Positions 132 to 47,130 of a stretch of 64,000 bases of DNA are shown in pieces. Source of the stretch: Octopus vulgaris (lineage: Eukaryota); NCBI GenBank assembly GCA_951406725.2, contig OX597822.1, positions 114,142,001-114,206,000 of the forward strand. Direction: 5' to 3'. A program made the position numbers and the translations under genes. Positions within the stretch are counted from its first letter, which is position 1; each line of letters opens with the position of its first letter. The notes beneath the pieces are model-generated. The model saw nothing but the letters and a program-made list of their open reading frames with translations, had not been told where the DNA came from and made no database searches.

Positions 132-313
132 ATGTGCCGACAATTGAAATTGACGTTTGTGTTGATACTCTATATGAGTTTCTGTTTGGAGTCTCATGCG
201 GCGTCAGACATTTGCACCATATGCCAATGTGGATATTCTAAGACAAATATAGATTGTTCATCTCGGCGACTGACTTCGATCCCGCAACCCATTCCACCGA
301 ATGTTGAAAGTTT
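132..313 (+). CDS. LRR gene, first coding exon: signal peptide + LRRNT cap
   Basis: ATG at 132. MCRQLKLTFVLILYMSFCLESHAA is a hydrophobic leader, followed by CTICQCGYSKTNIDCSSRRLTSIPQPIPPNVESL (LRRNT C-x2-C-x-C...DCS..L..IP). Acceptor ttcttttacAG at 110-111 upstream; donor GTAAGT at 314 (phase 2). Confidence 0.9.
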
Positions 314-8068: not shown

Positions 8069-8140
8069 GGGTTTGTTCAATAATAACCTGAATAAAATCA
8101 AACCAGAAACCTTCCAAAACCTGTCCAGTTTAGAAAGTCT
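8069..8140 (+). CDS. LRR gene 72-nt exon (LRR1)
   Basis: ttttatgttccAG / GTAAGT; phase 2-2; translates GLFNNNLNKIKPETFQNLSSLESL. Confidence 0.9.
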
Positions 8141-10183: not shown

Positions 10184-11437
10184 GGTGAGGAAGCAAAATT
10201 TACAATATTTTGAGGCAGGGATTGAAAGACAGTGTATGACCAATTATTTTATTGAAAGTTATGAGAATTTATTTGCCACAAGAAAATTTACATAATAGAA
10301 AATGTTTTTATTCGATGTGTCCTTCTTTATCAATAACTGCCTTCACACGCCTCCTGAAACTTGTACAAGTGTTCCTCAAATATTGGGGAGACAACTTCTC
10401 CCATTCTTCTGTTATAGTATCTTTAAGAGAGTCGACATTGCTGTGTGATGTTCTATTGGTAGCATGTTCTAAAACGCCCCAAATAGCATAATCCAAAGGG
10501 TTTAGATCTGGGCTAGAAGGCGGCCATAAACATGATTCCCAAAAATCGCTAAAGTTGGATTTGAAGAAATCTTGTATCTTTCTGGCTGTATGGGCTGGAG
10601 CACCATCCTATGTCCATACGTAATTACCATCTGGGTAGTTTACTTTAAGCCATGGCAATACCTGGTATCTCAGAGTCTTGTAGTAAGTATTAACATTGAT
10701 CTTTTCATCAGCTTTGTAGAATTTTATAGGCATTTTCTTTCCATCGGAAGCCACAACACCAAAAGCCATGACTTGTGCAGGATGTTTTGTTTTGAATGTC
10801 CCCTTAACCTCAGCTGTTGAATTTGCAATAAATCTGTAATTTCTGCGGTTCAGAACAGCATCGACAGTGGAGATCTTTTCATCTGAAAAGATTGTTACAA
10901 TGGAGGACTTTTTCTTGAACCATGTAATACTTTTCTTGCATCTCTCCAAATGTTTTGGTGTTCTTGTGTAAGATTTTAACCTCAAATCATATTTTACTGC
11001 ATTTCTAATGGTCTTTTTGTCTACCCCAAGTTCAATTGCCATTTTTCTCATGGATATGGTTGGATCCTTTAGGATTTTGGATTTGAGAGCTTTAATAAAA
11101 GCTTTGGTACGTTTTTTGTTGATTCCTCCACTTCCAGACTTCCTCGTAATAGTTTTGCTCATAGTCATTCTATTCTTTACATTATAAACAGTCTTTATGG
11201 ACACTCCAACTATCCTTGAAATCTCCTTTGGTGTGACGAGTGCATTCAGCAAATCACAAACTCTTTAACGTTTGCTTTCCTGATTACTCGTATGGGCAAA
11301 AGTTTCTGAAAAGGTAAGGATAATAGTGTTAGGTATGAGTATGACATCAATATATGCTAGGTTTCAAAACAATTGACTTAGTGCCTGCTGAGAAAAAGCA
11401 ACTTAACGTTCATTGTAAATTTTGCTTCCTCACCCTG
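10181..11437 (-). mobile_element. Tc1/mariner superfamily transposon, DD37D (maT-type), with premature stops
   Basis: Perfect 26-bp TIRs CAGGGTGAGGAAGCAAAATTTACAAT, TA flanks; motifs FSDEK, WT*DGAPAH, WPPSSPDLNPLDY; 37 residues between the 2nd and 3rd D. Confidence 0.9.
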
Positions 11438-11483: not shown

Positions 11484-11645
11484 ATTATGTATGCATATAT
11501 GTACATCAACATAATGGTGTTGGCTGTGTGTAGTTGTGTGCGTATGTGTATGCAAGTTTATAAATATTTACTAGTAAATCGCTCTGTATATCAAGTACGG
11601 TATTTATGTGAATATGAAGAGGACAAAGAAGAAAATGAAGAAGAG

Positions 11646-11691
<46 letters not shown>

Positions 11692-12800
11692 AAGAAGACG
11701 AAGAAGACGAAGAAGAAAATGAAGTATAGGAAGATTAAGAGGGAGAAGAAAAATAGTAAAAATTGAATGAAGATGAAGGAGACGGAGGTGAAGGGGAAGA
11801 AAAAAGATGATGATAAATGCGAAGGAGAAGGAAAGGAGTAGAAGCTGCTCCCCTTCCTCCTCCTATTTCTCCTTTTTGTCTTCCCCTCCTTTTCCTCCTC
11901 CTTTTTTACTTCTCATTATATAACTTGTACTTCCTGTGCTTTATCTTCTACTTTTACTACCTCTTCGTCTCGTGGAACCCTTCTTTCCCTTATTTCTACT
12001 TGTTCTGTCTTTACTTCATCTTCCTTACTCTCCGTCATTTCAACTTCTATTCCCTTCCTTCTCCTTCTCATTTATCATCATCATCTTTTCTTCCTCTTCA
12101 CCTCCGTCTCTTTCATCTTCGTCTACTTCTTTCTGTTCTTCTTCATCTTGCTCTTCTTCTTCTTCTTCTTCTTCTTCTTCTTCTTCTTCTTCTTCTTCTT
12201 CTTCTTCTTCTTCTTCTTCTTCTTCTTCTTCTTCTTCTCCTGTATATAAAAAAATCCTCTTTCATGATCTCTTCATAACAATTACTCTTTCCCTATCTTC
12301 TGCTGAATTATTTGTTCCTCTAAAATCTCTACTATTTCAATCACCACCATTGCCACCGTAACACTTATCGACGTCTTCCTCGCTGTCCGCATCACCGTCA
12401 TTATTCTCGTACTCACTGTGAACATTCCCCCAGTCATAATCATCGTATATTTCATCATCTCCCTCAACATCATCGACGTCATTTATTACCAAAAGCACCA
12501 TGATCGGGATACACGATCTTGAACACCATACAGACACATTGCCACAACGTCAGCATCATCAATATCATATTCATACTCACTATTGAAATGCTAATCCTCA
12601 ATCTCATTAACAACATCAATCAACATTAACATCAATCTCATCATCATCATCATCATCCCCATCATTATCCCTTCGTTATGGATAATAACAACATATATTT
12701 TCACCCTTTACTTATATCATATTTATCACTATTTGATATTTGTCTGTGTGCGTGTGTGTGTATGTGTATGTGTATGTATATATATATATATGTATATATT

Positions 12801-12979
<179 letters not shown>

Positions 12980-13252
12980 TCATATATATCTACATAATGG
13001 TTGTGTGTCTACGTGTCTGTTTAGCTATGGATATGTGAATGTAAGTGTATGAAAATTTACTAGTAATTCGGTCTCTATATCAAGGACGGTATTTATATTT
13101 CCATCATCATCATCTCTTCGTTATGGATTGTAACACCATATATTTTCACCTCAGCCTCATATAATATTCATCACTATTAATATCACAACTACTACCATCT
13201 CTATCACCATAGTTTTCTTTCCCACCTTCCCACTCATCGTCCTCCGATCGTC

Positions 13253-13308
13253 CTGGGTTCTGATGACATCAAGGAAATTAATGCTGACACCTTCCGAAAT
13301 TTGTCCAG
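13253..13308 (+). pseudogene. LRR pseudo-exon (acceptor and normal donor deleted)
   Basis: Encodes LGSDDIKEINADTFRNLS, similar to exon 16722-16793. No AG acceptor; the 3' end is fused directly to the post-exon intron motif gttgaat. Confidence 0.75.
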
Positions 13309-13569
13309 GTTGAATTAGTTTTCTTCTTCAGTATTTCATGGACGATATATTTCTAATTCTGTATTATGTGCACATCCTTCATTTAGGCTCCCTCACCTGT
13401 CCTTCCAAAGAAGATATTTATTGATCGTGAATTTGAGAGTGTGAGTGTGGGTTCATTTCTGAAATGTGGGATATATACAAGGCGGAACGCATTTACTGCA
13501 TGTATATGTATATATCTGTGTATCTTCTCAAACTTACTCTGACCACACTACGGATTTTATACGTATATT

Positions 13570-13603
<34 letters not shown>

Positions 13604-14548
13604 TGTGAGTGTGTGAGCAGTGGTGCGTCTGGTTGTGTGCTTGTGTGTTCGTTTGTGTATAGATGCGGGTACTCGAGTACATCAAAATATATGTGTAATT
13701 AGATCTGGGTATCATCTACATTATTGATATCTCTATCGTCATTGAATATAAATACCTGTTTCACATTTCTTCCTCTTTCTATTTATTTTCTTCTCCTTCA
13801 TCTTCTTCTTCTTCTTCTTCTTCTTCCCCTCCTACTCCTATACTTCAGCCTCCTCCCCCTTCTTCTACATTTTTTCTTCTGAGTTCTCTTTTCCTCTAAA
13901 TTCTCTACAATTTAATTCGCCACAATTACTGCCGAGATAATTATTGACGTCTCCCTCTCCATCCTCATCACCGTCATTATTCTCATCTTCGTTGTTACCT
14001 TTCTCAAACATAAACACCGTCAACTTTATCGTCGACCTCGTCATCATCGTTATCATTGATTACCAAAAAGCACCACGATAGGAATACTCAACCTCCTGGT
14101 CATCCTGATCATAGATAACACATTACCAACAACGCCACCATCCTCAATATCATTTTCATATTCCCCATTTAAATGCTAATCCTTAATCATTATCATAACA
14201 ATCAGCATTAACAACATCACTCTGGTCATCATCACCTCAATATCATCATCATCCCTACCGCCATAGATTTCTACCTCTGCTTCATCCTCATATTAATGAC
14301 TGTCAAGACCAGATATTCTACAACTAAATCTATCAGCACAGGTTTCCGACCTCCTCCTCCTCTCTTCCTTCTTCTCCCTCATTCGACTTATTGTCATCAT
14401 CATCAACATCATTGTCGACAACTTTATCTGCAACAATCTAATCATCATCGTGACTTGATGTTCATCCTTTCCTTCCTGTAACTGTTTACCCAAAATTCTG
14501 TCATAAATGTCTCATAAAATTGCTTCTTAACTCAATTTTATGTTCCAG

Positions 14549-14620
14549 AATCTTACGTTTAAATGCCATTACGGAAATCAAACCAGACACCTTCCGTTAT
14601 TTGACACGTTTAAGAATACT
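14549..14620 (+). CDS. LRR gene 72-nt exon (LRR2)
   Basis: ttttatgttccAG / GTAAGT; translates ILRLNAITEIKPDTFRYLTRLRIL. Confidence 0.88.
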
Positions 14621-15606
14621 GTAAGTTGAATCTGTTTTCTTCTTTAAAATTTCATTGTCTAAATCTTGATCTATCTCTAATGTGAACCCATCTTTCATTT
14701 AAGCTCCCTCACGCATCCTTCCAAACCAGAGTTTATTGTTTACGAATTTGAGTGATTGTGGATCCATTTCTTAAATGTTGGATATGTGACGAATTCACGA
14801 TACAAGATGGAACCCATTTATTGCATGCATGAGTATATGTCTCAGTAGTTTTACAATTATACTCCATCCGAACTGTTTGTTGTTTGTGAATCACTGATAA
14901 TGTTGTGGAGGGCCATTCTTGAGATTTCGGATATATCGGTGTGTGACAATTGAAGGGAGATTTTAGTGCAAGTTGTATCTGTGCAATTCTGTTATATCTT
15001 TTGTAATGGACTGGAATATCTATGTTTCGAAATTCATCAAAATTGCAGATGAGGGTTATTTCCCTTTTTACACACCCCACAAAAATTGTAATCGTGCCAT
15101 ATGTATCCCATACTACTGATTTTTAAGCGCATATTCCAAAATTCCAGTCTTATTGAACCTGTTAAAAAGATTTTGCTCCTGAAAAATGAAGGTCATGGAG
15201 CTCTAAAATGTGTGAGTTTAGGCCTCCGTTGGGGGTGAGCATCTTAATGTTAACCACAGAAGTTGAAATGTTGAGAATCTTTTTAACTTAGATCTTATAT
15301 CTATTGTTTGAATTTCTTTGAAATAGGAAATATATATTCACTGTGTTTGTAAAAGAGAGCAAATCTACAGGAAACCAAAAGAAGAATGATCACAATAAGC
15401 GGTCAGTTACCTAACCCTATTGTTAGCATTCGCAATGCAGGCTTCCTCACCAGGCACAGCCGTAAGATGCATTACGAATCTATAGCAATTGGAAGGGCGT
15501 GACCCAACTGAAATAAACATTAACAACTGTGTGAGGTGAGGGCTAAGGAGAAATGAAAGTGTGAACTCTGGAGTTTGCAAATGACCTCTATACTGATACG
15601 TAACCG

Positions 15607-15645
<39 letters not shown>

Positions 15646-15652
15646 GTATACT

Positions 15653-15830
15653 CTTACTATTTTACTTGTTTCAGTCATTTGACTGCGGCCATGCTGGAGC
15701 ACAACATTTAGTCGAGCAAAAATCGACCCCGAGACTTTTTCTTTGTAAGCCCAGTACTTATTCTATCGGTCTCTTTTGCCGAACCGCTAAGTTGTCGAGC
15801 AATGCTAGGGGGACAAACACAGACACACAA

Positions 15831-15868
<38 letters not shown>

Positions 15869-16040
15869 CTACATATATACGACAGGCTTCTTTCAGTTTC
15901 CGTCTACCAAATCCACTCACAAGGCATTGGTCGGCCCGGGGCCATAGCAGAAGAGAGTTGCCCAAGATGACACGCAGTGGGACTGAACCCGGAACCATGT
16001 GATTGGTTAGCAAGCTACTTACCACACAGCCACTCCTGCG
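15653..16040 (-). mobile_element. tRNA-derived SINE (octopus-type)
   Basis: Minus-strand head GGAGTGGCTGTGTGGTAAG...GGTTCAGTCCC (A/B-box-like), internal (TA)/(CA) tract, 3' tail CCAGCATGGCCGCAGTCAAATGACTGAAACAAG. Confidence 0.8.
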
Positions 16041-16721
16041 CTACATCAACATAATGGTGTTGGCTGTGTGTAGTTGTGTGCGTATGTGTATGCAAGTTTA
16101 TAAATATTTACTAGTAAATCGCTCTGTATATCAAGTAGGGTATTTATGTGAATATGAAGAGGACAAAGAAGAAATTGAAGAAGAGGAAGTAGTAGTAGCA
16201 GTAGTTGCAGTAGTTGCAGTAGTAGTTTATTACCAAAAGCACCATGACAGAGATAGACGATCTTGAACACCGTACAGACACATTGCCACAACGTCAGCAT
16301 CATCAATATCATATTCATACTCACTATTGAAATGCTAATCCTCAATCTCATTAACAACATCAATCAACATTAACATCAATCTCATCATCATCATCATCAT
16401 CCCCATCATTATCCCTTCGTTATGGATAATAACAACATATATTTTCACCCTTTACTTATATCATATTTATCACTATCAATATCACAACTACTACCATCTC
16501 TATCACCACAGTTTTTCTTTCATCCTTTCCCACTCATCATACTCCCATCTCCTCTCTCGTTCGTCGTCATCATCATCAACATCATTGTCTCTAAAGACAT
16601 CGTCATCAAACTTTTCATCAATTTGATATACTGTACATCTATTCCTTCATCTAATTGTTTATCCAAATCTCTCTAATTAATATACTAAAAAAATACTTTT
16701 TAACTCAATTTTCTGTTTCAG

Positions 16722-16793
16722 ACACTTGGGTGCTAATGAAATCCAAGAAATCAGTGCTGACAGTTTCCGAAATTTGTCCAGTTTACAATATCT
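16722..16793 (+). CDS. LRR gene 72-nt exon (LRR3)
   Basis: ttttctgtttcAG / GTAAGT; translates HLGANEIQEISADSFRNLSSLQYL. Confidence 0.9.
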
Positions 16794-17239
16794 GTAAGTT
16801 GAATCAGTTTTCTCCTCTAGTATTTCATTGACGATATCTTTCTCAATGTGTATTATGTGCCCATCGTTCAATTAAGATCCCTAACACAACATTGCAAGCA
16901 GCTAATTTAGTTTTTGTGAATTTGAGAGTGTGAGTATGGGTCCATTTCTTAAATTTTGGATATGTGAGGTCACGATACAAGCCGGAACCCATTTATTGCA
17001 TGCATGTGTATAGGTCTGAGTTTGTTAACTATTTTTCTCTATCTGAAGTGTTTTCTTGTTTGCGAAACACTGCGAATGTTGTAGAGGCCCATTCTTGAGA
17101 TTTCAGTTTGTGACAATTGAAGGGAAACATGTAGTGCAAGTGTTATGTCAGTGTATATGTGTATATATATATATATATAAATAAATATTTGTCTATGTGC
17201 TTGTGTGTGTATGTGTATGTATATATATATGTATATATT

Positions 17240-17305
<66 letters not shown>

Positions 17306-17621
17306 TATATTAATATATATATATATATATATATATGTATATCTACATAATGGTGTTGGCTATTTGCGGTTGTGTGTCTACGTGTCTGTTTAGCTATGGA
17401 TATGTGAATGTAAGTGTATGAAAATTTACTAGTAATTCGGTCTCTATATCAAGGACGGTATTTATATTTCCATCATCATCATCTCTTCGTTATGGATTGT
17501 AACACCATATATTTTCACCTCAGCCTCATATAATATTCATCACTATTAATATCACAACTACCACCATCTCTATCACCATAGTTTTCTTTCCCACCTTCCC
17601 ACTCATCGTCCTCCTATCGTC

Positions 17622-17677
17622 CTGGGTTCTGATGACATCAAGGAAATTAATGCTGACACCTTCCGAAATTTGTCCAG
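17622..17677 (+). pseudogene. LRR pseudo-exon, duplicate of 13253-13308
   Basis: Sequence identical to 13253-13308, at the equivalent position of the second duplication unit. Confidence 0.75.
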
Positions 17678-18914
17678 GTTGAATCAGTTTTCTTCTTCAG
17701 TATTTCATGGACGATATATTTCTAATTCTGTATTATGTGCACATCCTTCATTTAGGCTCCCTTACCTGTCCTTCCAAAGAAGATATTTATTGATCGTGAA
17801 TTTGAGAGTGTGAGTGTGGGTTCATTTCTGAAATGTGGGATATATACAAGGCGGAACGCATTTACTGCATGTATATGTATATATCTGTGTATCTTCTCAA
17901 ACTTACTCTGACCACACTACGGATTTTATACGTATATTTGTGTGTGTGTGTGTGTGTGTATGTGTGTGTGAGTGTGTGAGCAGCTGTGCGTCTTGTTGTG
18001 TGCTTGTGTGTTCGTTTGTGTATAGATGCGGGTACTCGAGTACATCAAAATATATGTGTAATTAGATCTGGGTATCATCTACATTATTGATATCTCTATC
18101 GTCATTGAATATAAATACCTGTTTCACATTTATTCCTCTTTCTTTTTATTTTCTTCTCCTTCATCTTCTTTTTCTTCTTCTTCCCCTCCTACTCCTATAC
18201 TTTAGCCTCCTCCCTCTTCTTCTACATTTCTTCTTCTGAGTTCTCTTTTCCTCTAAATTCTCTACAATTTAATTCGCCACAATTACTGCCGAGATAATTA
18301 TTGACGTCTCCCTCTCCATCCTCATCACCGTCATTATTCTCATCTTCGTTGTTACCTTTCTCAAACATAAACACCGTCAACTTTATCGTCGACCTCGTCA
18401 TCATCGTTATCATTGATTACCAAAAAGCACCACGATAGGAATACTCAACCTCCTGGTCATCCTGATCATAGATAACAGACACATTACCAACAACGCCACC
18501 ATCCTCAATATCATTTTCATATTCCCCATTTAAATGCTAATCCCCAATCATTATCATAACAATCAGCATTAACAACATCACTCTGGTCATCATCACCTCA
18601 ATATCTTCATCATCCCTACCGCCATAGATTTTTATATTCTGGTTCATCCTCATATTAATGACTGTCAAGACCAGATATTCTACAACTAAATCTATCAGCA
18701 CAGGTTTCCGACCTCCTCATCCTTCTCGTTTTCCTTCTTCTCTCTCCTTCGACTTATTGTCATCATCATCAACATCATTGTCGACAACTTTATCTGCAAC
18801 AGTCTAATCATCATCGTGACTTGATGTTCATCCTTTCCTTCATGTAACCGTTTACCCAAAATTCTGTCATAAATGTCTCATAAAATTGCTTCTTAACTCA
18901 ATTTTATGTTCCAG

Positions 18915-18986
18915 GTACTTGATTGATAATGATATCCAAGTTGTAAAACCTGACACCTTCCGACATTTGTCCAGTTTAATAATGCT
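18915..18986 (+). CDS. LRR gene 72-nt exon (LRR4)
   Basis: ttttatgttccAG / GTAAGT; translates YLIDNDIQVVKPDTFRHLSSLIML. Confidence 0.9.
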
Positions 18987-20130
18987 GTAAGTTGAATCTG
19001 TTTTCTTCCTTAAAATTTCATTGTCTAAATCTTGATCTATCTCTAATGTGAACCCATCTTTCATTTAAGCTCCCTCACGCATCCTTCCAAACCAGAGTTT
19101 ATTGTTTACGAATTTGAGTGAGTGTGGATCCATTTCTTAAATATTGGATATGCGACGAATTCACGATACAAGATGGAAACCATTTATTGCATGCATGAGC
19201 ATATGTCTCAGTAGTTTTACAATTATACTCCATCCGAACTGTTTGTTGTTTGTGAATCACTGATAATGTTGTGGAGGGCCATTCTTGAGATTTCGGATAT
19301 ATCAGTGTGTGACAATTGAAGGGAGATTTTAGTGCAAGTTGTATCTGTGCATCTCTGTTATATCTTCTGTAATGGACTGGAATATCTATGTTTCGAAATT
19401 CATCAAAATTGCAGATGAGGGTTATTTCCCTCTTTACACACACCCCACAAAAATTTTAATCGTGCCACATGTATCCCATACTACTGCTTTGTATGCGCAT
19501 ATTCCAAAATTCCAGTCTTATTGAACCTGATAAAAAGATTTTGCTCCTGAAAAATGAAGGTCATGGAGCTCTAAAATGTGTGAGTTGTGGGTGGGCATCT
19601 TACTGTCAACTAGAGAAGTTGAATTGTTGAGGATCTTTTTAACTTGGGTCTTATATCTATTGTTTGAATTTCTTTGAAATAGGAAATATATATTCACTGT
19701 GTTTGCAAAAGAGAGCAAATCTACAGGAAACCAAAAGAAGAATGATCACAATAAGCGATCAGTTACCCAACCCTCTCGTTAGCATTCCCAATGTAGGCTT
19801 CGTCACCATCCAGATGACAGGCACAGCCGTAAGATGCATTACGAATCTATAGCAATTGGAAGGGCGTGACCCAACTGAAATAAACATTAACAACTGTGTG
19901 AGGTGAGGGCTAAGGAGAAATGAAAGTGTCACCTCTGGAGTTTTCAAATGACCACTATACTGATACGTAACTGGACAGAGTAAATTTACAATCTATAAAT
20001 GTGTTTTAATAAGCAGTCACACGTCTGAGAAGGCCTTGAAATCAATGTTACCATCTGGGGACTATGTGTGACCCAGTGATAATAAAAGGACTGAAAGGAG
20101 GTCTGCAATCAAATAACTTTACTCGACACT

Positions 20131-22047
20131 TTGCAACTGAATCAGTGGATGCAAAGATGCCTCTTGGCCGTAAAGACTAATATAGGTAAGGAATTTTTGA
20201 GATTAGTCTCTAAGCATTTTAAGCCGGGCCATACATTCTATAGGATATTTAATAGAAGAACCCTGAAGGTTAGCTATTCTTGTTGCAGAAATTTCGCCTC
20301 TTACATTAGCCAGCAAAATAGGAATCTGATTGAGATTAAACATGGTACCGAGCCCATTAAGAAATGCAATTGCAAAAATGAAAACTCCTGTCCGTTAGAA
20401 GGGCAATATTTAGTAAAAGCAGTAGTTTATAGAGCCAAGGTACAAATAGAAGGTTCATCGGAATACAAGACATATACGGAGGCTTCGGAAAATTCGTTTA
20501 AAACACGATTTTATTCGCATAAAAATTCATTTAGATACCCAGAGAATAGGAAGAGGACCAGCCTAGCAAAATATGTCTGGGAACTAAAAGAAAAGGAAAC
20601 CCCACCTTTCAACGTGACATGGAGCATTCTGGACAGAGCGGCACCATACAGGCATGTAGCACACAGGAATAATTTTAAATGCAATCTTTGCCTATTAGAG
20701 AAACTGTATATTTTATTCAAAGACAATAATTCTTTGAATCAAAGAAGTGAGCTGATGAACTTATGTAGACACGCAACCAAATTTAAAATGTCAAGTATAA
20801 ATATACCATATGGATAGAGTATATATTTTGTATTTTTGATTTTTGAAATTTTGATTTTGACTCTTGGACTAGTATGTAAACGCGACGATGGATTTGTTTC
20901 GCGCTATACAGATTTCATTCCGTATAGCAAAGTCTCATGCATATATTTTGTTTATTTTGTTTATATTTCTACATATACATTAGGAAAAACCTTCGGCTTT
21001 GTTTATTTCATGTTATTGTATTGTATAGGATTACTTTGATTTTTAATTTATAGATGATCCAAAATAGGGTGTTATATTTTATATGTCTTTCGTATATTTT
21101 TCATTATTGCACTCACCATTTTTTTAAAAAAGCAATGTTGTCAAAAATTAGAATTTTGATGTAAATATGTGTATAGCCATGTCTATGTATTTGTAAGCAT
21201 GCGTCTCTGTGTATGTGTAAGTGAGCGTATGTTTGTGCTTAAGCACACACATACACGACTGTATGTGTATGTATCCATTTGAACTTGTGTGCTTGTATAC
21301 TTGTTTCTCTATATATGTCAATAACGTGGTTACACCACTTGTATACATAATTTTTCTTATTTCGTTTTTTCCCCACCCCTCCTTTTTCTTTTTTCCTTCC
21401 CCCTTATTCGTTCCTTTTTCTCTCTCTTCCTTTCTTTCATTTTTTTCTCTAATTGATACTGGTGCATACAACTTTACGTTCCCCTCACTTACTTATGTCT
21501 TAAATAAGGAACGCTACATTAGCATCCATGATTTTAACTTGCGTGCGAAATAGATTGCGTGCGTATACATATGTATGCATGCATTTGTGTGTATATTTTA
21601 GATTTATAGTTATACGTCTGTATATGTATGGCGTTTGCACGCATACTTCTGTGTATGTTGATATATATATGTACACTTTAATATGAATATGTATTGCAGT
21701 GTAATATTTATAATACATTTTAATTTCCATGTATTAATTATATTTTCTTCATTAACGTCAATATGTATTTTATTCAATGTAAGGTTTTTCCTCGAATTTT
21801 ATAATTTTTATAATTTTTATATATATATACATATATATTTTTGAGCTCATTTTTTGTTTATCGCTCGAAGATTGACCGTTATTTCTAAAGGGCCAATCAA
21901 ACAAGTCCATTTTTTAAAGGTGTAGCGTTTGTAAGAGTCTGGATTGAATTGATATATCGGTTCCATTCTAACAAAAACTGTCTGATGAACGGCAACGAGA
22001 AACTCAGAGTAACAGATTTTGTTGAATTTTCTGCTGCTTTAAATAAA
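20131..22047 (+). mobile_element. 5'-truncated Penelope-like element (GIY-YIG endonuclease end + 3' region)
   Basis: ORF 20131-20817 with KVSYSC, CNC..CPL, YTEASENSFKTRFYSH, CNLCLLEK, LNQRSELMNLCRH; hammerhead motif near the 3' end; ends at (TA)n. Confidence 0.8.
21974..22020 (+). ncRNA. Minimal type I hammerhead ribozyme motif at the Penelope 3' end
   Basis: aaaactgt-CTGATGA-acggcaacga-GAAA-ctcagag-TA-acagatttt; near-palindromic stem III; GUA triplet. Confidence 0.65.
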
Positions 22048-22630: not shown

Positions 22631-25600
22631 AAATTTAAATTTACATGTATGTATATATATACATACATGTAAATTTAAATTTAAAATACAAATGGGGACA
22701 AAATTGAATATTAATTTGTTTAATATGAATTGAAAACCAGTGGCGTAGCATATAAGACCCTAGTGGATCTTCTCCTTGCAAAATGGATGTCTACTCTTAA
22801 TGGTTCATCCCTCTTATATAATAGTTTGATTTAATAGTTTCAGTATTAAAGTGAAAGCATGTGACATTACAATAGAGAGATGTTTTTGTTTCACTTTTAA
22901 CACGTAATACTGAAATATTGGGGAAGATATGATATTGCAGTGGCCTCGCCCTGGGCAAGAAGTAAAAATTGTTTTACCCATGACACTACATGGACCCTAA
23001 GTAAGGTATGTGTAAAATTCGAATGAAATTGGTTTTGTAGTTCTCAAGCTTTAGGGATTCACACAGACAGATAAACATACATTCTCAGTTTTATATATAT
23101 AGATATCTGTGTAAATGTATATATATATATATGTGTGTGTGTATGTGTGTGTGAGTCTGTGTATAAATGTATATATATATATATATGAATATAACAAAGA
23201 GGGTCTTTGCAACAAGTTGCTAGACCACATACCGAAAGTATTAGAAATGGCAGCCAGAGGACTGTTATTTCTATTACTACAAAAATATGTCTCCACAGAC
23301 AACAGTATTTGTAACTCATTATGTGGCAAAAAAGAAGAAAAATAGCGAAATCAAACAGTCCACGGTCAATTGTGGACGTACGTTTCTGGATTAGAATCAA
23401 AGATTCATTTCCTTTATTAACATAATATTCCGCTAAGTAAATCTGGAAATGCTAGGAAATCTTACCCTCCATATCTATGGATATGTGTATGCAAGTGTAT
23501 GGAAATGTACTTGTAAATCGGTCTGTATATCATGTACGGTGTTACCAATGATTAGCCTTTCCCTACGAATTTGAAGTTTTCTTTCCCATGTCCCTCTTCT
23601 CATGATCCTCTTCTTTTCTTATTCCTTCCTCTTTGTTTTCTTCTTCTCCTCCTACTCATTTTCCTTATTTTTCCTCCTTCTGTTTTACTTCTAATTATAC
23701 AAACTGTACTCCTTCTTCGTCTCCTCCTCCTTCTTCTTCGTCATCATCTCCTCCTCCCCTCCTTCTTCTTCTCCTTCTACTAATATTTCTTCGTCGACTT
23801 GCAGCCCTCATTCCACTCTTTCTTCTCGTTCTTTCATTACTTCATCTTTTATCACTCTTTCCTTTCAGCTTCTATTCCTTCTTCTTCTTCTTCTTCTTCT
23901 TCTTCTTCTTCTTCTTCTTCTTCTTCTTCTTCTTCTTCTTCTTCTTCTTCTTCTTCTTCTTCTTCTTCTTCTTCTTCTTCTTCTTCTTCTTCTTCTTCTT
24001 CTCCTCGTGTATGTAAAAATTCTCGTTCATGAATCCTTCATAACATTTTCTCTTTCTCTTTCTCTTCCGCTGAATTCTCTGTTCCTTATCTCTAAGTTGA
24101 ATCTATTTCCTTCTTTAGTCATTTCATTGACGATATTTCTCTCAATCTGTAATATGTGCCCATCGCTCCTTTAAGCTCCCTCAACCGTCCTTCGAAAGAA
24201 GTCTTTTATCGTTTGTGTAATTGAGTATGTGATTGTGGGAGCATTTCTTATATATTGGATATGTGAGTTCACGATCCAAGATGGAACACATTTATTGCAT
24301 GCATGTGTATATGTCTGAGTACGTTTACAATCTTTCTCTGAACGAAACTGTACTATTGTTTGTGAAATCACTGCTAATGTTCTGGAGGGCCATTCCTGCG
24401 ATTTCGGATATGACAGTTTGAGACAATTGTAGGGAAACTTATAGTGCTATGTCTGTGTATCTATCTATCTATCTCTCTCTATATATATATGTGTGCGTAT
24501 ATGTGTGTGTTTACGTGTGCATGCGTGTATGTGTGTGTGTTTGTGTGTGTGTATGTGTGTGTGGGTTTGTATATATAGATATGTGTGTGTGTTTGTGTGT
24601 GAGGTTGTGTATATATGCCTGTTTTTCTATGGATGTGTGTATGCAGTGTATAAAAATGTACTGGTAATTCGATCTCTATACCATGAACCGTATTTATTTT
24701 TCCATCACCAATGATTAACATCTTAGATTTCCTGTCTTTCTACTTCCTCGTTATCATCCCCCTGCTCCACTTCATCCTCCTCTTCGTTTCCTCTTTTTTC
24801 TTCTTTTTCTCCTACACCATCCCCTTCTTTTTCCTTTCTTCCTTTTTTTCCTTTTACTTATACATCTTCTTCTTGTCTTCTTCTTTTCCTAATTCTTGGT
24901 CGTCTCCTTTAACCCTTCTTCCCCCTTTTCCTTTTCTTTCTTTACTTCATCTGTTTTACTCTCTTTTTCATCTTTTCCTATTCCGCTTTCATCTCCAGCA
25001 TCATCCACTTCTATTCTTCTTGTTCTTCTTCTCCTGCTTCTTCTTTCTTCTTCTTCATCGTATTCTCCTCCTCTTCCTCCATATTCTTCTTCTTTCTCTA
25101 CTTCATCTGTTTTACTCTCATTACCATCGTCTTCATCATCATCCTCTTTTCTTCTTGTTCTGCTTTTCCTGCTCCCTTCTATCTTCTTCTTCATCATCAC
25201 CTTTTCCTCACCTTCCTCTTCACACCCTCGTCTCCTTCTTCTCCTTCTTTCTTTATTTCTCGTGTGTGTAAAAATATCCTCTTTCTCCATCATCAGCTGA
25301 AGTCTCTTATTCCTTTAAATCTATTCAATTCACCTCCATTGCCACCGTGATAACTATGGACGTCTTCCTCTCTGTCCTCATCAGACACATTATTCTCATC
25401 TTCATTGTTACATTTCTCACTCATAAACATCTTCAAGTTCATCGTCACCATCTTCATCATCGAGATCATTTATTACCAAATAGCACCACGATAGAGATAT
25501 AATATCTTGAAATCCATTTTGATCCTGGACGGCAAATACATTACCATCAACGTCATCATCCTCAATATCATATTCATATTCACCATTGAAATGATAATCC

Positions 25601-26703
25601 TCAATCATTATAGTAACAATCAGCATTAACAACATCACTCTCGTCATCATCATCATAATCTCTTCGTTATGGATAGTACCACAATTTATTTTCACTTTTG
25701 CCTTATTAACATATTCATCACTATCAATATCACAACTACTACCATCTCACTATTTACATTATTTACATTTCCTCTATCCTCCACTTCCTCCTCCTCCTCC
25801 TCCACCTCCTCCTCCTCCTCCTCCTCCTTCTTCTTCTTCTTCTTCTTCTTCTTCTTCTTCTTCTTCTTCTTTCATGGTTTCTTCATATCATTTTCTATTT
25901 CTCTATCACCCGCTGAATTCTTTATTCCTCTAAAACCTCTTATATTTAAATCTTCTTTAATATTTCATTACCTTATCTTTCTAAATTTGTAATATGTGCC
26001 TATCCTTCATTTTAACCTCCCTTGTCTATACATCCAAAGTTCAGTTTTATTTTTTGTAAATGTGACAGTGTGAGTGTGGGTCCATTTCTAAAAATATGGG
26101 ATATGTTAATGCACGATACAAGACGAAACCCAGTGAGTGCATGCGCGTGTATTTCTGTGTATGTTTACAATCTTTCTCTATCCGACCTGTGTTATTGTTT
26201 GGGAATCACTGCGAATGTTGCGGGGAGAAATTCGTGAGATTTCTGATATAACAGTTTGAGACAATTGAAGAGAAAATGTGGTGCAAATAATTATGTCCGT
26301 GTGTGTGTGTGTGTGCGATGGTGTCTCTGTGTGCGTGTTTGTATCAGTTGGTGCATGGATGCGTGTATGCGAGTGTAGCAAAATGTATCTGTAATTCGGT
26401 TTCTATATCATGTACGGTATTTATTCCTCCGTCAACACTGATTAACGTCTTTGACTTCTTTTTTCTTCTTATTCGTCATATTCTTCCTCTTGTTCCTTAT
26501 TTCATTTCCTACCCTTTGTCCTTCTGCGTATGTTAATTTATGTCTAACCACTTCCTTTCCTTAATTCTTCTTTTTCTCCTGCTTTGGATGTGTATTTATG
26601 TCTGTTTATGTGTGTTTATCTCTCCCCACTTCTTCTTTCTCATTGTACTTTTTCTCCTGCTTCTTTTCTTTCTTATTCTACTCATTGCCGTTGTTGTTGT
26701 TGC

Positions 26704-26746: not shown

Positions 26747-27129
26747 CTTCTTCTTCTTCTTCTTCTTCTTCTTCTTCTTCTTCTTCTTCTTCTTCTTCTT
26801 CTTCTTCTGCTACTCCTTCGTCTCGTCTAGTTCTTATTTTTCTACTCCTCCTCCTTCAACTCTTCATTCTCTCCTTTTTGTTCTTCCTCTACTACATCTC
26901 TACTTTCCTCCTTTTTCCTCTTCTATTTCTTCTTTTTTTGTTATTTTCCGTCCTCTTCTGTTCTCTTCCTTCCTCTCCTCCTCTTCATATTCTTTCTTCT
27001 CGTCGTCCATCTCATCATCATCTCCATTTACAATTTTTTATCAATATATAATTTCTTTCGTCATAATATTTAACGTTTTGTCACTTATCTTTTCTATATG
27101 TTTGTTATGAACTCCGTTTTATGTTACAG

Positions 27130-27201
27130 GTTTTTGAATGACAATAATATAACGTATATTCAACGCGGTACCATCGAAAACCTTCCGAATTTAGAAAGAC
27201 T
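27130..27201 (+). CDS. LRR gene 72-nt exon (LRR5)
   Basis: ttttatgttacAG / GTGAGT; translates FLNDNNITYIQRGTIENLPNLERL. Confidence 0.9.
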
Positions 27202-28512
27202 GTGAGTTGGGTCGCGTTTGTTCGTACCATCTATTTCTCCATATATCTACGTTGTTAATATTTTCTCCAACTTTGTTTTGTCTATCTCTCTTTCTTGAGT
27301 GTATCTAACTAACACCCATGCACTCTCTCCATAGTTTTCTCTGAGTGTATGTGTGAATGCGTGTTTGTGAAAGTGTAGGTGTGTGGATGAATGAGCTTCT
27401 TTTTTACTTACTTCTTATGCATAGGTAATCATGTTCTTGTTTCTAAACATCCGTTTACCTAATATTCAAATTCTCATTATTCAACTATATTCCATCATTT
27501 TTCTCGTTCTTTACTTCTTTATTCTAGTTTTCTAAGTTTATCTTTTAATCTTCATAAGTTTTTGAGTATGGATGTACAGATACCGAGTATATCAGAAAAA
27601 AGTGTTCAAATTTTAGATACAACTTTGAAACGTTGTGTCTCAGTATCACTTAAAGGTAACAGAACTATCACCTTCTTTTCTAACACAAATGGACCCTATT
27701 TTGAGCAAGACGAAATGTGAGTTCCTCTCCAAGCTCTCATGAATAATCATGAATGAATTGGCGAAGATGAAATTCTATGTTTTAACATAGCTGAGGATTG
27801 GAATGAATTTCAAACATTGGAATAAATTTAAAACGGAAGGTCTTAAAGTTATATTTGAAAGATTGAGTAAGAATTCTGGCCAAACCCCTGGTTTTTAGGC
27901 ATCATGAGTTACTCCTTGTTTGCCAAAGACTTTATCAACCCTTTTCCTGCCTTACCGCAAGATTTCTTGTGGAAAGTCTCATCAATATCTTATTCCCACG
28001 TCCTAAGAATGGAGGTTTCGAGGGCTTTCAGATAGGTGTGGGGCTACTCACAAACGTTTTTACGATCAGTTCATGCCAGATGCTGACGTCCAAAGGGCTC
28101 AAACCAGAGGATGAATGAGGCCAAGTGTCCCTATCCTAAAACATTTTCGCAATATGATCCATGGGAAACATTTGTCTCACTACACTTGTGTGACAAGGAA
28201 CATCCTCTTACCATCAGGGATCATGCAGTTGAAAATTATCACTTAGGTTTTTGCCCCTAAAATGACACTTTTGTCTTTCTCGTGAGCTGAAGCCAGAACT
28301 CAGCCGTCGCGTCAGTTTGTGCGCATATCCTGGGTGAATATCTTCTCACTCGAAGGTTGTGTTTCACTTTGTCGCAGATGAACTTCGCCCTCTCTCTAAT
28401 CATCATCTCCATTTAAATTTCTTAATTATATCTATTTTTTTCGCCATAATATTAAACATTTTGTCACATATCTTTTCTATATGTTTGTTATGAACTCCGT
28501 TTTATGTTACAG

Positions 28513-28584
28513 ATATTTGCATGACAATAATATAACGTATATTCAGCGCGGTACCTTCGAAAACCTTCCGAATTTAAAATATAT
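28513..28584 (+). CDS. LRR gene 72-nt exon (LRR6)
   Basis: ttttatgttacAG / GTGAGT; translates YLHDNNITYIQRGTFENLPNLKYI. Confidence 0.9.
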
Positions 28585-30879
28585 GTGAGTTGGGTTGCTT
28601 TTGTTCGTACCATCTATTTCTCCATATATCTACATTGTTAATATTTTCTACAACTTTGTTTTGTCTATCTCTCTTTCTTGAGTGTATCTAACTAACACCC
28701 ATGCACTCTCTCCATAGTTTTCTCTGAGTGTATGTGTGAATGCGTGTTTGTGAAAGTATAGGTGTGTGGATGAATGAGCTTCATTTTTACTTACTTCTTA
28801 TGCATAGGTAATCATGTTCTTGTTTCTAAACATCCGTTTACCTAATATTCAGATTCTCACTATTCAACTATATTCCATCATTTTTCTCGTTCTTTACTTC
28901 TTTATTCTAGTTTTCTAAGTTTATCTTTTAATCTTCATAAGTTTTTGAGTATGGATGTACAGATACCGAGTATATCAGAAAAAAGTGTTCAAATTTTAGA
29001 TACAACTTTGAAACGTTGTGTCTCAGTATCACTTAAAGGTAACAGAACTATCACCTTCTTTTCTAACACAAATGGACCCTATTTTGAGCAAGACGAAATG
29101 TGAGTTCCTCTCCAAGCTCTCATGAATAATCATGAATGAATTGGCGAAGATGAAATTCTATGTTTTAACATAGCTGAGGATTGGAATGAATTTCAAACAT
29201 TGGAATAAATTTAAAACGGAAGGTCTTAAAGTTATATTTGAAAGATTGAGTAAGAATTCTGGCCAAACCTCTGGCTTTTAGGCATCATGAGTTACTCCTT
29301 GTTTGCCAAAGACTTTATCAACCCTTTTCCTGCCTTACCGCAAGATTTCTTGTGGAAAGTCTCATCAATATCTTATTCCCACGTCCTAAGAATGGAGGTT
29401 TCGAGGGCTTTCAGATAGGTGTGGGGCTACTCACAAACATTTTTACGATCAGTTCATGCCAGATGCTGACGTCCAAAGGGCTCAAACCAGAGGATGAATG
29501 AGGCCAAGTGTCCCTATCCTAAAACATTTTCGCAATATGATCCATGGGAAACATTTGTCTCACTACACTTGTGTGACAAGGAACATCCTCTTACCATCAG
29601 GGATCATGCAGTTGAAAAATATCACTTAGTCAGGTTTTTACACCTCAAATGACACTTTTGGCTTTCTCGTGAGTTGAAGCCAGAACTCAGCCGTCGCGTC
29701 AGTTTGTGCGCATATCTTGGGTGAATATCTTCTGATCTATGTGAAATATCACTCGAAGGTTATGTTTCTCTTTGTCGCCGATGAACTTCGCCCTCTCCAA
29801 TCTTCTAAACTTTTGTCCTGGAGTATCAAGACTCCTCACAAGTTTCATATGCAATTTTGTTTTCACGTCTTCTGTCACCAGATGCCAATAACCTTATGGA
29901 TTGATTTGAATCTCTTCTGATCGATCTCTTCAGCTCCAGATTGAAATGATCCTTCTTGAGGTTATGACCTCTTTATGTAGCTTTCCTCTCCACTATTCCA
30001 TCATTCTTAAACTTATACACAAATGTCTTGATAATTATTGAATGGGCATCGAAGAGGGAATCTAGAGAATGAATTTCGGTACCATTACTGAAGGCCTGAA
30101 TGATCTTAACACTCTCAACCTTGCTCAGTCGGGTGTGGTTGACACAAAACTATTTCATCCTGTTACCTTTCTAGCTAAATATCTTAAATGGTATTTCACC
30201 GATTCTTATAAAAACGGATGTCAGTATGTCCAGTCAGCTTATGTGCAAAACATGTAACAAAAAGCAAAAAGTGTGTTAGTTTAAAAGTTTTCAAGAGTGT
30301 TTGGGCATGGCAGTTTTGCTGTTACATATGTTATATATTTAAGTCTAAGTATATGTGCGAGTGCGCGTGAATGTATCAAATCTTAACCTATTCTCCATCA
30401 TCATCATTAGAAACTTCACTAGCACGAACGTCAACATGAAAATCATCATCATTATCTTCATAATCATCCTCATTAGAATCATTATCACAATCAGCAACAG
30501 CAACATTTTCGTCAACACTACCACATTCTTCCTGTCTTAAGACTCAAAACTATATACGACGACGACGTCTGGCACCACCACTCCTCCTCCACCTCCTCCT
30601 CCCCTTCACCAACACCACCATCAGATTCTCTTGTGAAAAGAAGCTGCGAAAAGCGACACCAAATCAGATGAAAATATAAAAACGAACACTAGTGACTTCT
30701 ACAGATTTCAAAAGTATTTACCTTAGTGCGCTACAGCCTATGGCCAGGAGGATAAGCGAAATACTCAATTAACAATTCGCAAATGCTTTCAATTCCTCAT
30801 TAGAAAATATGCAAATAAGCAAGCTTGATAAGTTCCTACAGAAAAGAAAGAAAACATCTGTTATTTCGATGTGAACTTA

Positions 30880-31771: not shown

Positions 31772-33016
31772 TATTAGGTCAAGTATGAAATTTGTAGAAA
31801 GGTATACGGTAAAATTTGACAGCTGCTCGTTTTGCGCCATTATTATATTTTGACAACCCATATTCTCTTTTAAAAAACTGACACATCTAGTTCTTTATTC
31901 TTTGCGCTTTATAAAGTATTTATTAATCGCTTTTTGCTATTTTTGTTTAGGGATGGATAAGTCAGAAATTCGTACAGTTTTGAAATATGAGTTCTCTCTT
32001 GGAAATACAGCCTCACTGACAGCTCGGAATATTAATAGGGAATTTCATTCTAATGTTATTACACAGCAGACAGTATCTAATTGGTTTGCAAAATTTAGTT
32101 CTGGTAATTTTGATCTTACAAATGAGCAATGCGGTCGACCAGAAACAAAGTTGGATAATGTCGAACTGAAAGCAACCGTCGAGTCTGATCCATCTCAAAG
32201 TGCCTGTGAATTATTGTTGTTGTTTTGTGTTAGCAAGCAATATTGACTCACCTAGTTCAAATCGGTAACGTGAAAACGTTGGATAAGTGGGTCCGATATG
32301 AATTCAATGAAAATCAAAAATAACACCGTTTGGAAGCCTACATTATGCGAGTTTCTCGTCGCAAAAATGAATTATTTTTGAATCGAATTGTAACGTGATG
32401 AGAAATCGATCCAATGCCACAACTGTAGAGATTAACCACAATGACTGGACGAAGACGAGCCACCAAAACACGGTACAAAACGCAAAGTTCATCAAAAGAA
32501 GCTGATGGTGTGCGTTTGGTGGTCTGTTCCTGGTGTGATCCTTTATGATATCATTAACCCTGGCTCATCAATCTCGACCGAAGTCAGCTGGAACAAATGA
32601 TGCAGAAACGTACAAAAACAACCTAGATTAGTCAACAGATCACTCCTATTTTACTGCAAGACATCGCCGGATCACACATCGAAAAAATAACTTTGGCGAA
32701 ACTACAGGGTTTCGAGTTGGAAGCTCTCCTTCATCTACCTACTCACCCGATATTGCCCCCACTGACTACCACATCTTTCAGAATTTCACTAACTTTTTGT
32801 TAGGAAAACAATTAATTCCGATGATGCTGTAAAACAAGCCTTCCAGGAATTTATTCTCTCTAGACTGCCAGGCTTTTACAGTTCCGGGGTACACAGGCTA
32901 CCGCTGAAATGGCAAAATTGTATTGAAAATATGGGTGCATACATTGAAGAATAAAACTATTCCTTGTATTTACAAAACATTGGTTTTCGACAATTTTCAT
33001 ACTTGACGACCTAATA
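31772..33016 (+). mobile_element. Degenerate mariner transposon
   Basis: Imperfect TIRs TATTAGGTCAAGTATGAAA / TTTCATACTTGACGACCTAATA; MDKSEIRTVLKYEF N-terminus, YSPDIAPTDYH motif, multiple stops and frameshifts. Confidence 0.85.
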
Positions 33017-33491: not shown

Positions 33492-33563
33492 ATATTTGAG
33501 CAACAACCAAATACAAAACTATGATGATGGCGCGTTCTTATTCCTTCCCAGTATTTCTACCAT
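33492..33563 (+). CDS. LRR gene 72-nt exon (LRR7)
   Basis: cttttttccAG / GTATGT; translates YLSNNQIQNYDDGAFLFLPSISTI. Confidence 0.9.
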
Positions 33564-44348: not shown

Positions 44349-44518
44349 CGACCTCAGTAACAATAAAGATATGATGTGTGGATGTTACCTGCCAGCCTTG
44401 GTAAATTATACTAAATCAAAATTCAACAGAACTGTGTGGGTAGGAGGCGAGTGTCAGACAGATCCAGGCAATAAGCAAAGCAGAATTATACCTATAAAGA
44501 AATACACGCAATGTCAAA
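44349..44518 (+). CDS. LRR gene exon: last half-LRR + Cys-rich LRRCT-like cap (gene likely continues downstream)
   Basis: aatttcAG acceptor, phase 2. Translates DLSNNKDMMCGCYLPALVNYTKSKFNRTVWVGGECQTDPGNKQSRIIPIKKYTQCQ (DLSNN...CxC..L...C...C). Probable donor GTTAGT at 44519. Confidence 0.82.
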
Positions 44519-45842: not shown

Positions 45843-45878
45843 TATATAATATATATATATAATATATATATATAATAT

Positions 45879-46996: not shown

Positions 46997-47130
<134 letters not shown>

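Follow-up and report, generated by a model that had tools for sequence, protein, structure and literature searches.

Mosaic LRR exon cassettes with a hypervariable concave face on an octopus adhesion GPCR, and an exon pair uncoupled from its introns

The larger finding in this stretch of Octopus vulgaris DNA is a family of GPCR genes with mosaic LRR cassettes and a hypervariability like that of VLRs. The window, i.e. the whole stretch of 64,000 nucleotides analysed here (contig OX597822.1, positions 114,142,001 to 114,206,000), contains much of an intact octopus adhesion GPCR gene (LRR-GAIN/GPS-7TM). Its ectodomain is built of same-phase exon cassettes, each encoding a single 24-residue LRR (Table 1). 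There is strong diversifying selection across the family at the concave binding face. Moreover, one tandem exon pair, exons A and B, is a true outlier in which recombination has uncoupled the exons from their introns. This indicates a fast-evolving recognition system and not a new gene-editing mechanism.

Under predicted splicing, the germline exons form a complete, in-frame chain that starts with the signal peptide and reaches the 7TM part. The first coding exon shares 75-83% identity with all seven of its matches, six of which are named Octopus proteins. After the LRR cap, 14 segments are colinear with P0008 and P0012 and stop-free in the P0012 alignments, and the GAIN/GPS exons are colinear with both at 41-72% identity. 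The GAIN, GPS and 7TM exons lie beyond the window at ~114211632-114246792 on the same contig (C9). Pfam GPS and GAIN were found in the relatives P0009-P0011, while for the class B membrane domain six downstream segments align to the 7TM region and Pfam 7tm_2 was found in P0001. A secreted VLR-like protein, which would terminate at a stop codon behind the LRR cap, was rejected because a splice donor precedes this stop and GPCR exons follow downstream. One of the gene's close paralogs matches P0010 (41%, E=4e-84), whose cluster includes the group 3 member A0A0L8FLR8, and a group 3 member is included in that paralog's long matches (6/6, by protein similarity). The window gene thus seems close to “group 3”, a set of adhesion GPCRs expanded in octopus (PMC6408891).

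We gathered 224 single-LRR exons from 921 kb. First-exon matches in one genome comprise at least 16 close ones and up to 49 altogether. Cassette classes are common to 17 of the 18 gene intervals examined (several partly covered) and differ in order and number, the empty interval being C8:78865001-78885000 with zero LRR exons. Exon-skipping isoforms are also annotated. All three candidate inverted LRR exons in the 921 kb were reverse-complement overlaps of true exons; they remained in the 227-exon set of the selection analysis, touching 2 of 136 pairs, and an earlier 211-exon set held one microsatellite false positive that was later removed. The initial annotation of this DNA gave neither the identity of the gene, an LRR adhesion GPCR, nor the size of its family.

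Table 1. Features of the window (positions within the 64-kb stretch).
Feature	Position	Strand	Evidence
First coding exon, signal peptide and LRR N-terminal cap	132..313	+	Pfam LRRNT E=2.4e-5, slightly short of curated cut-off
72-nt LRR exon, cassette class X	8069..8140	+	Splice-site/LRR scan; class from flank similarity
Duplicated unit A, extra copy; expected preceding class Y exon absent	12755..15604	+	Self-BLAST
Dead LRR exon, unit A; no acceptor, 3' end deleted	13253..13308	+	Copy comparison
Exon A, 72-nt phase-2 LRR exon, class A, “alpha” type	14549..14620	+	X1 contig spans
72-nt LRR exon, class Y	16722..16793	+	X1 contig 16632-16940, zero differences
Duplicated unit B, after Y and before Z, the place of the single class A cassette in sister genes	17130..19971	+	
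Dead LRR exon, unit B	17622..17677	+	Same letters as 13253-13308
Exon B, 72-nt phase-2 LRR exon, class A flanks, “beta” type	18915..18986	+	
Two cassette remnants (~24087-24447 and ~25951-26310); exon gone, downstream flank retained	24087..26310	+	75-80% identity to A, Y, B downstream flanks
72-nt LRR exon, class Z, copy 1 of second tandem duplication	27130..27201	+	Exon/flank comparison
72-nt LRR exon, class Z, copy 2	28513..28584	+	Splice-site/LRR scan
Last 72-nt LRR exon, class T	33492..33563	+	Scan, flank class, protein alignment
LRR C-terminal cap exon	44349..44518	+	No Pfam match; aligns to P0008 residues 112-162

The hyperdivergence of exons A and B beside near-identical introns, first noted in the initial annotation, was confirmed. 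There are 27 mismatches between the two 72-base exons, beginning with exon base 1, while the 65 bases upstream have no mismatch and the 135 bases downstream have one. Outside the exon, the duplicated units differ at 70 of 2523 aligned sites (2.8%; 93.5% identity by self-BLAST when gaps are counted), and the chance of at least 27 mismatches at this rate is ~1e-23. The internal control proposed earlier likewise stands, with 0/56 mismatches between the two dead exons. Across the five copies that still have it, the dead exon shows 0-3/56 differences and tracks the flanks, whereas the live exon of the same units differs by 26% on average over six copies, and thus the effect requires a functional exon. 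The four synonymous codon pairs listed before were confirmed, and a fifth synonymous difference comes from exon base 1, the third base of a split Leu codon (third codon positions: 5/12 differ, P=1e-5). The edges are less clear: mismatch from base 1 holds and can be attributed to protein anatomy (see below), but splice-site sharpness is unproven since the near-identity of the immediate flanks hardly exceeds the unit average (P=0.16 for the upstream side, 0.11 for the downstream side and 0.024 for both together).

Selection was estimated by pairwise contrasts rather than a codon site model, along a spanning tree whose pairs are incompletely independent and were picked for low flank distance. In 130 non-class-A pairs, replacement divergence at the concave-face codons (exon codons 1, 3, 4, 22 and 23) reached 25.5%. 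The flanks diverged by 4.8%, which gives a ratio of 5.3 (bootstrap 4.5-6.3), and replacement divergence at the remaining codons was 3.9%. Among the youngest duplicates (26 pairs with flanks at 0.45%), the first two positions of the concave codons differed by 10-11.5% and the third by 0.8%. The replacement rate of the binding face is therefore 5x the intron rate, and ~20x in the youngest duplicates, an arms-race signature. Synonymous changes in the 130 pairs (66 observed vs 68.0 expected from flanks; ratio 0.97, 0.73-1.23) equal intron change, and general exon swapping in the family is not supported. Exon/intron decoupling as a general property was thus not borne out: the initial annotation itself had taken equal exon synonymous and intron divergence as evidence against it, and 130 of 136 pairs show just that. 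A general synonymous excess seen with raw Nei-Gojobori estimates (pS 6.0% vs flanks 3.2%, 1.9x, 104 pairs) was gone after transition/degeneracy matching, and templated copying across cassette classes was rejected with patches in 158 real and 145 artificial-hybrid cases out of 438. In the two bins with the youngest pairs, concave codons carry multi-base changes (5 vs 1.7 and 11 vs 5.8 expected, partly double-counted) that are suggestive at most of templated copying and often have no counterpart in the same class.

In the structure model of an O. sinensis relative, the beta-strands are centred on the exon junction. The intron there divides each concave strand, which explains why the selected codons sit at both exon ends, and this strand position likewise accounts for divergence starting at exon base 1. 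The modelled relative, rather than the window gene itself, has a capped 24-residue LRR solenoid with a hypervariable concave face that fits VLR structures at 1.0-1.3 Å rmsd, although NGL-3, Slit and others also match.

Class A differs from the rest of the family. Its pairs have 9 synonymous changes vs 2.3 expected (P=6e-4), and the A/B pair alone 4 vs 0.15 (P=2e-5, ~0.003 corrected for 136 pairs). Flanks cluster by chromosome while exons cluster as alpha (4) vs beta (3) across chromosomes, a comparison within one haploid assembly and hence blind to allelic status. In tree tests on 72 bases and 11 cassettes, exon data rejected the flank tree (AU p=0.036; p=0.0008 excluding concave codons) and flank data likewise rejected the exon trees. 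The alpha/beta split takes in synonymous sites and becomes stronger once concave codons are removed. The interpretation in the initial annotation is partly supported, with incongruent trees in class A and synonymous divergence equal to flanks elsewhere. Flank sites common to A and B (22, including -124, -105, -95 and +47) are interleaved with 9 common to A and the sister gene, as expected under patchy conversion, and tract ends were placed no closer than -95 and +13. Six changes in exon A and seven in exon B are private and match no sampled donor. An alpha patch occurs in 6 of 224 exons, every one in the neighbouring classes A and Y. It is found in two of the four class Y exons, where the type switch is confined to the exon 5' half and the flanks are far from class A; hence transfer into the exon is needed, beyond flank homogenisation alone.

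We lean, with modest confidence, towards two old exon lineages that were kept by selection while recombination homogenised their flanks, as in L/M opsins. The observed layouts suggest that cassettes are gained, lost and swapped between genes via unequal crossing-over. Class A would hold two old lineages, alpha and beta, within one cassette type; germline conversion and crossing-over would homogenise neutral flanks, with selection removing tracts that erase the exon difference. Unequal crossover might then have set alpha and beta cassettes in tandem, and an independent duplication might have produced the same tandem in the sister gene, so that two separate genes carry it. The class Y alpha patches and the private changes in exons A and B count against this history. 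Of the two options left open by the initial annotation, homogenised introns around a protected exon thus reads best, and a swapped exon is a close rival. The latter, possible but less probable, invokes the same family-wide selection with the opposite direction of exchange: the alpha unit was recently duplicated in tandem and germline conversion (~45-180 bases) then pasted a paralog's beta exon into unit B, where selection favoured it. The 22 derived flank sites common to both units agree with such an event, every informative site fits a single tract into unit B within -95/+13, exon B has beta letters at bases 7-27 and an other-chromosome letter at base 49, and the alpha patches imply that short exon transfers occur. 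However, there is no donor, exon B being 15/72 and 16/72 off the two other beta exons, the equally long exon A branch is unexplained by a one-way event, and difference patches in other classes are no commoner than in artificial hybrids.

Point mutation with very strong positive selection alone accounts for the family as a whole, and 10 of the 27 A/B differences fall within the five concave codons. The pair, the most extreme among 775 compared, would then be a chance extreme and alpha/beta a convergence. This is improbable and for the A/B pair already largely refuted by its synonymous excess and by an alpha/beta split that holds synonymous sites and grows without concave codons; the initial annotation had rightly considered it insufficient, as the incongruent trees also indicate. 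Directed whole-exon replacement between conserved flanks (cDNA-templated, programmed or somatic VLR-like) would be compatible with a whole-exon tract in exon B, the untouched dead exon, the VLR-like fold and variable positions, and the very high replacement rates of the youngest duplicates. We regard it as highly improbable, given that synonymous sites follow introns in 130 pairs, class Y switches only the exon 5' half, strand position explains the base-1 edge, identity in the immediate flanks hardly departs from expectation, the gene is already complete in the germline instead of an incomplete gene plus cassettes, and there are zero inverted exons in 921 kb. The earlier suggestions of cDNA templating and VLR-like assembly thus gained no support. 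Least probable of all is an assembly artefact, in which two haplotypes, or two genes, were misjoined as units A and B. Among the contigs listed, none covers both units or joins exon B to both flanks. A contig of sequencing run X1 covers exon A plus both flanks with 3 differences; the run as a whole shows no exon B letters, which proves no absence. These B-private letters were found in X3, X7 and X14 contigs, and the depth of X14 (presumed RNA, placed at 80% likeness so that paralogs contribute) is 259.6 on A and 259.5 on B, as expected of one transcript contig. The units are also 2.8% apart with a distinct exon between them, and the sister gene has an independent alpha+beta tandem. If A and B turned out to be alleles, the tandem would not be real, whereas the contrast between exon and flanks would remain so.

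In the available text on group 3 (Ritschard et al. 2019, PMC6408891), members have GPS and class B 7TM domains, LRRs in 5 of 22, tandem clusters, branch-level positive selection with zero positively selected sites, and expression in axial nerve cord, suckers, skin and gills, with a proposed neural-wiring role; one-LRR exons, cassette mosaics and exon/intron decoupling do not appear there. Likewise, the openly accessible articles covered contained no description of cassettes of LRR exons, or of selection at individual sites, for octopus GPCRs. Exon 5 of primate L/M opsins (Fawcett and Innan 2011, PMC3924837) is described as a divergent selected exon between homogenised introns with discordant exon and intron trees. 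Similarly, in class A only, flanks show conversion signs, divergence including synonymous sites peaks at the exon, and exons cluster by type and introns by locus, here across chromosomes of one genome. In contrast to two fixed opsin genes with two functional sites, as far as that text goes, a 72-base exon among hundreds of cassettes is under ongoing diversifying selection. The Arabidopsis RPP8 NLR paralogs combine intergenic conversion and diversifying selection, with LRR synonymous diversity above that of the adjacent intron, but in the part of the source available (PMC6771003) LRRs are not one per exon and the synonymous excess is family-wide, while in octopus it is found in one class only.

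Brown algal ROCO genes (Zambounis et al. 2012; Teng et al. 2024; PMC3341825, PMC11378527, available in part) have a 72-base exon per 24-residue LRR, inactivated intronic exons, intra- and intergenic recombination, concave-face positive selection and exon-skipping isoforms. The octopus genes share the 72-base same-phase exon per LRR, the dead exons in introns and, judging by cassette layouts, recombination of LRR exons both inside single genes and among different ones. Inverted exons, typical of the algae in those texts, were not found in the 921 kb, and a GAIN/GPS/7TM part takes the place of cytoplasmic ROC-COR GTPases. VLR genes are incomplete in the germline, and their somatic assembly involves cytidine deaminases. 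The octopus gene is instead germline-complete, predicted to be spliced and to signal via a GPCR, and its LRR exons have no exon-wide synonymous excess. What it has in common with lamprey and hagfish VLRs, as far as the text of a 2026 review on immune diversification in animals goes (PMC13428168), is the LRRNT-LRR-LRRCT solenoid, 24-residue repeats and concave-face variation; the same text names no cephalopod diversified receptor family.

The mechanisms thus have precedents in opsins, plant NLRs and brown algae, and the novelty lies in their combination on an animal adhesion GPCR. On the preferred reading, the A/B pair illustrates how old exon variants can be kept by selection while recombination wipes out intron history. 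Since two exons encode each binding strand, shuffling or skipping makes new surfaces. At epithelia with a barrier or sensory role, the receptors might recognise a ligand that changes fast, most likely microbes or parasites and possibly non-self or chemical cues, and signal via the GAIN/7TM module. The genes, exons and five codons are concrete candidates for octopus recognition of microbes, parasites and non-self. A variable receptor repertoire, with LRR exons reshuffled by exon-limited conversion and skipping, partly somatically, into more surfaces than the germline encodes, seems unlikely as a whole, although its germline half (cassette mosaics, concave selection, annotated skipping isoforms) is supported. 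If true, such a repertoire would be a functional analogue of VLRs or Dscam directly coupled to G-protein signalling.

Further traces of duplication are present in the window. Segments 11502-11686 and 12482-12732 match DNA upstream of exon Y, and in the second tandem duplication (27010-28346 / 28395-29733) the exons differ at 10/72 bases and the flanks at 29/1263.

On alignment, the two 72-base LRR exons in the tandem units, exon A and exon B, differ at 27 of 72 bases, with no difference in the 65 bases upstream and one in the 135 downstream, and the dead exons of both units have the same sequence; the figures of the initial annotation and its internal control were thereby reproduced. The duplicated unit (~2.85 kb) differs at 70 of 2523 non-exon sites, and in unchanged codons of the exons 5 of 12 third positions differ, the first exon base counted (P=1e-5 at the unit rate). 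The pair is the top extreme among 775 pairs compared, and its differences are made up of sites that separate two exon types (alpha and beta), hypervariable concave codons, and private changes (6 in A, 7 in B). The contrast is a real feature, its mechanism is less exotic than had been proposed, and behind it lies a large receptor family that is diversifying strongly and deserves experimental follow-up.

Features of the window gene and its relatives (positions in the window unless a contig of the assembly G000 is named)
Feature	Position	Cassette order
First exon (signal peptide and LRR cap)	132-313	
Class X exon	8069-8140	
Unit A	12755-15604	
Exon A	14549-14620	
Unit B	17130-19971	
Exon B	18915-18986	
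Second tandem LRR cassette pair	27010-29733	
Intronic mobile-element remains	1526-2605, 10311-11264, 20095-20814, 31854-32900, 35811-38943	
LINE-type reverse transcriptase copies	45863-64000	
Direct and inverted LINE-type copies	53134-57931 vs 59696-62316	
Cysteine-rich domain (L091)	G000:C9:114211632-114214742	
Class Y exon of sister gene (L008)	G000:C9:114384881	
LRR exons open in reverse complement	G000:C29:14881428-14887704	
Family clusters	G000:C29:13.1-16.3 Mb, C10:6.3-6.8 Mb, C8:78.9-79.3 Mb, C26:15.0 Mb	
Remoter family copies	C30, C31, C2, C28	
Window gene		X A Y A Z Z T
Sister gene		X X Y A Z T
Gene joining blocks of two subfamilies		c1 c11 c10 c7 X X Y A Z Z T

Across this family, exons outpace introns because the binding face is under positive selection. 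Exon and flank divergence were compared in 136 nearest-neighbour cassette pairs, and in the 130 outside the class of A and B (class A) 66 synonymous changes were counted where the flanks predict 68.0 (ratio 0.97, 0.73-1.23), so that the exon swapping or exon protection first put forward is not borne out as a general rule. Selection on the concave face is plain from replacement divergence in the same pairs, which reached 25.5% at codons 1, 3, 4, 22 and 23 against 4.8% in the flanks (ratio 5.3, 4.5-6.3) and was 3.9% at codons outside this concave set; in the 26 youngest pairs (flanks 0.45%), the difference at concave codons is 10-11.5% for first and second positions and 0.8% for third positions. 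The variable codons are the x positions of the LxxLxLxxN motif. A structure model (pLDDT 87.5) of a relative from O. sinensis resembles VLR, NGL, Slit and further LRR structures; each of its concave strands is made of codon 23 and the split leucine, followed by codon 1 of the exon after it. The second tandem cassette pair follows this ordinary pattern: its exons differ at 10 of 72 bases, 8 of them at or beside the exon ends, and its flanks at 29 of 1263.

Within class A, exon history is uncoupled from flank history. The flanks of its seven cassettes cluster by chromosome, whereas the exons fall into alpha (four copies, A among them) and beta (three, B among them), types that are split across chromosomes and told apart by six linked sites within exon bases 7-27. 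In a tree test on class A plus four class Y cassettes, each data set rejects the other's tree, the exons that of the flanks at AU p=0.036 (0.0008 without the concave codons). Synonymous changes number 9 against 2.3 expected in the class and 4 against 0.15 in the A/B pair alone; the earlier argument that selection on point mutations is an insufficient explanation thus holds for A and B, for which we consider selection alone improbable, and is not supported for the family at large, which selection explains. The effect depends on a live exon: the five copies of the dead exon in the same units differ at 0-3 of 56 bases, against a mean of 26% for the live exon. In class X, with copies on C9 and C29, the exon differs at 18 of 72 bases from a copy at 4.7% flank distance, its 3' half is nearer to copies on the other chromosome, and synonymous changes number 11 against 6.5 expected.

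We favour, at slightly better than even chances, a history in which alpha and beta would be old exon lineages retained by selection, their flanks having meanwhile been homogenised by ordinary germline conversion and unequal crossing-over, and alpha and beta cassettes would then have been captured in tandem. This reading is preferred because both exons sit on long branches, no donor for the exon was found in the assembly, and a second gene carries an independent alpha and beta tandem. The long branches and lack of a donor in turn speak against an exon-sized conversion into unit B, which is the less likely but close alternative; the same informative sites, from one assembly, would fit it. Of 224 exons, 6 carry the alpha patch: four belong to class A and two to class Y, its neighbour. 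In class Y the type switch is confined to the 5' half of the exon, and the patch there shows that short transfers happen. Any exchange in B is bounded at closest by sites -95 and +13, and derived flank sites uniting A with B (22) are interleaved with those uniting A with the sister gene (9).

A directed or cDNA-templated swap, for which the splice-site-sharp edges had been cited, is quite improbable. The binding strand is interrupted by the intron, which is why the first exon base already diverges, and the immediate flanks are barely closer than the unit average (P=0.16 and 0.11; 0.024 jointly). In classes other than A, difference patches are no commoner than in artificial hybrids (158 versus 145 of 438), which gives no sign of general templated copying. 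That the units are a misassembly is barely credible; in sequencing run X1 one contig covers exon A plus both flanks, and exon B letters are present in runs X3, X7 and X14 and absent from the X1 contigs, which cannot prove absence. X14 shows these letters and X1 none, though both share an organism code, and a presence/absence or allele difference is possible. In X14, by guess an RNA run, depth is found in exon bins and is zero in four intron bins beside A and B, lending weak support to expression.

Besides the first exon and a C-terminal cap exon, the window contains seven intact 72-base LRR exons of phase 2 along with four degenerate cassettes; beyond it, exon alignment to Octopus proteins adds GAIN, GPS and a class B 7TM domain, preceded by a cysteine-rich domain. 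The downstream exons are colinear with Octopus proteins named 'adhesion GPCR G6-like', and alignments to the relative P0012 contain no stops. The cysteine-rich domain lies on two exons between LRR cap and GAIN, ends in a CCxGNLCN motif and, we assume, resembles Ly6/uPAR three-finger domains. The last aligned exon of the window gene stops shortly past the 7TM. In the O. bimaculoides relative P0010, a Death domain follows the 7TM at the C-terminus, which is unusual for a GPCR and suggestive of immune or cell-death signalling.

The tight splice-flank pattern gave 86 matches (reversed control 0), the first exon 49 among 57 candidates (16 at at least 73% identity) and the cap exon 60 among 63. LRR exons were sampled from 921 kb around the closer copies, a part of the family biased towards the query's relatives, which yielded 227 exon calls, or 224 once three reverse-complement artefacts were dropped. 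Inverted-exon scans can be misled, as some LRR exons, when reverse-complemented, are open over 72 bases flanked by AG and GT. Cassette classes, defined by flank similarity, reappear across genes in varying order and number, and three isoforms of one O. sinensis gene (P0002, P0003, P0004), known from annotation only, skip single 24-residue LRR exons. Some family genes have 20-32 LRR exon calls in the fetched parts, with near-identical multi-exon blocks in tandem arrays. The sister gene's class Y exon has the acceptor GAG, not CAG, and is possibly weakened or skipped.

A group 3 member of the octopus-specific adhesion GPCR expansion (Ritschard et al. 2019, PMC6408891) sits in the cluster of one of six long hits, and the window gene likely belongs to this group. 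According to the accessible part of that paper, 5 of the 22 members carry LRRs, the genes are expressed in axial nerve cord, suckers, skin and gills, positive selection is seen at branch level with no selected sites, and neural wiring is a suggested role for group 3. The selection pattern, taken with the expression reported for gill, skin and sucker, leads us to infer that family members may recognise a changing ligand at epithelia, most likely in immunity. LRR exon cassettes, shuffling and site-level selection in octopus adhesion GPCRs are undescribed in the literature searched, most subscription papers lying outside its scope. As described in the accessible parts of the respective papers, the primate L/M opsin 'peak of divergence' (PMC3924837) and RPP8 (PMC6771003) present an exon/intron contrast like that of class A, and brown algal ROCO genes (PMC3341825, PMC11378527) a like gene anatomy, as initially proposed. 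The parallel drawn with VLR assembly fails, the octopus gene being complete in the germline and spliced.

Several LINE-type reverse transcriptase copies lie inside the intron behind the LRR cap exon, 97% alike, in direct and inverted orientation and each bordered by long TA repeats. The other intronic mobile-element remains we take, by motif, to be a gag-like ORF with a zinc knuckle, two Tc1/mariner-like transposase fragments, an endonuclease-like ORF and a minus-strand reverse transcriptase.
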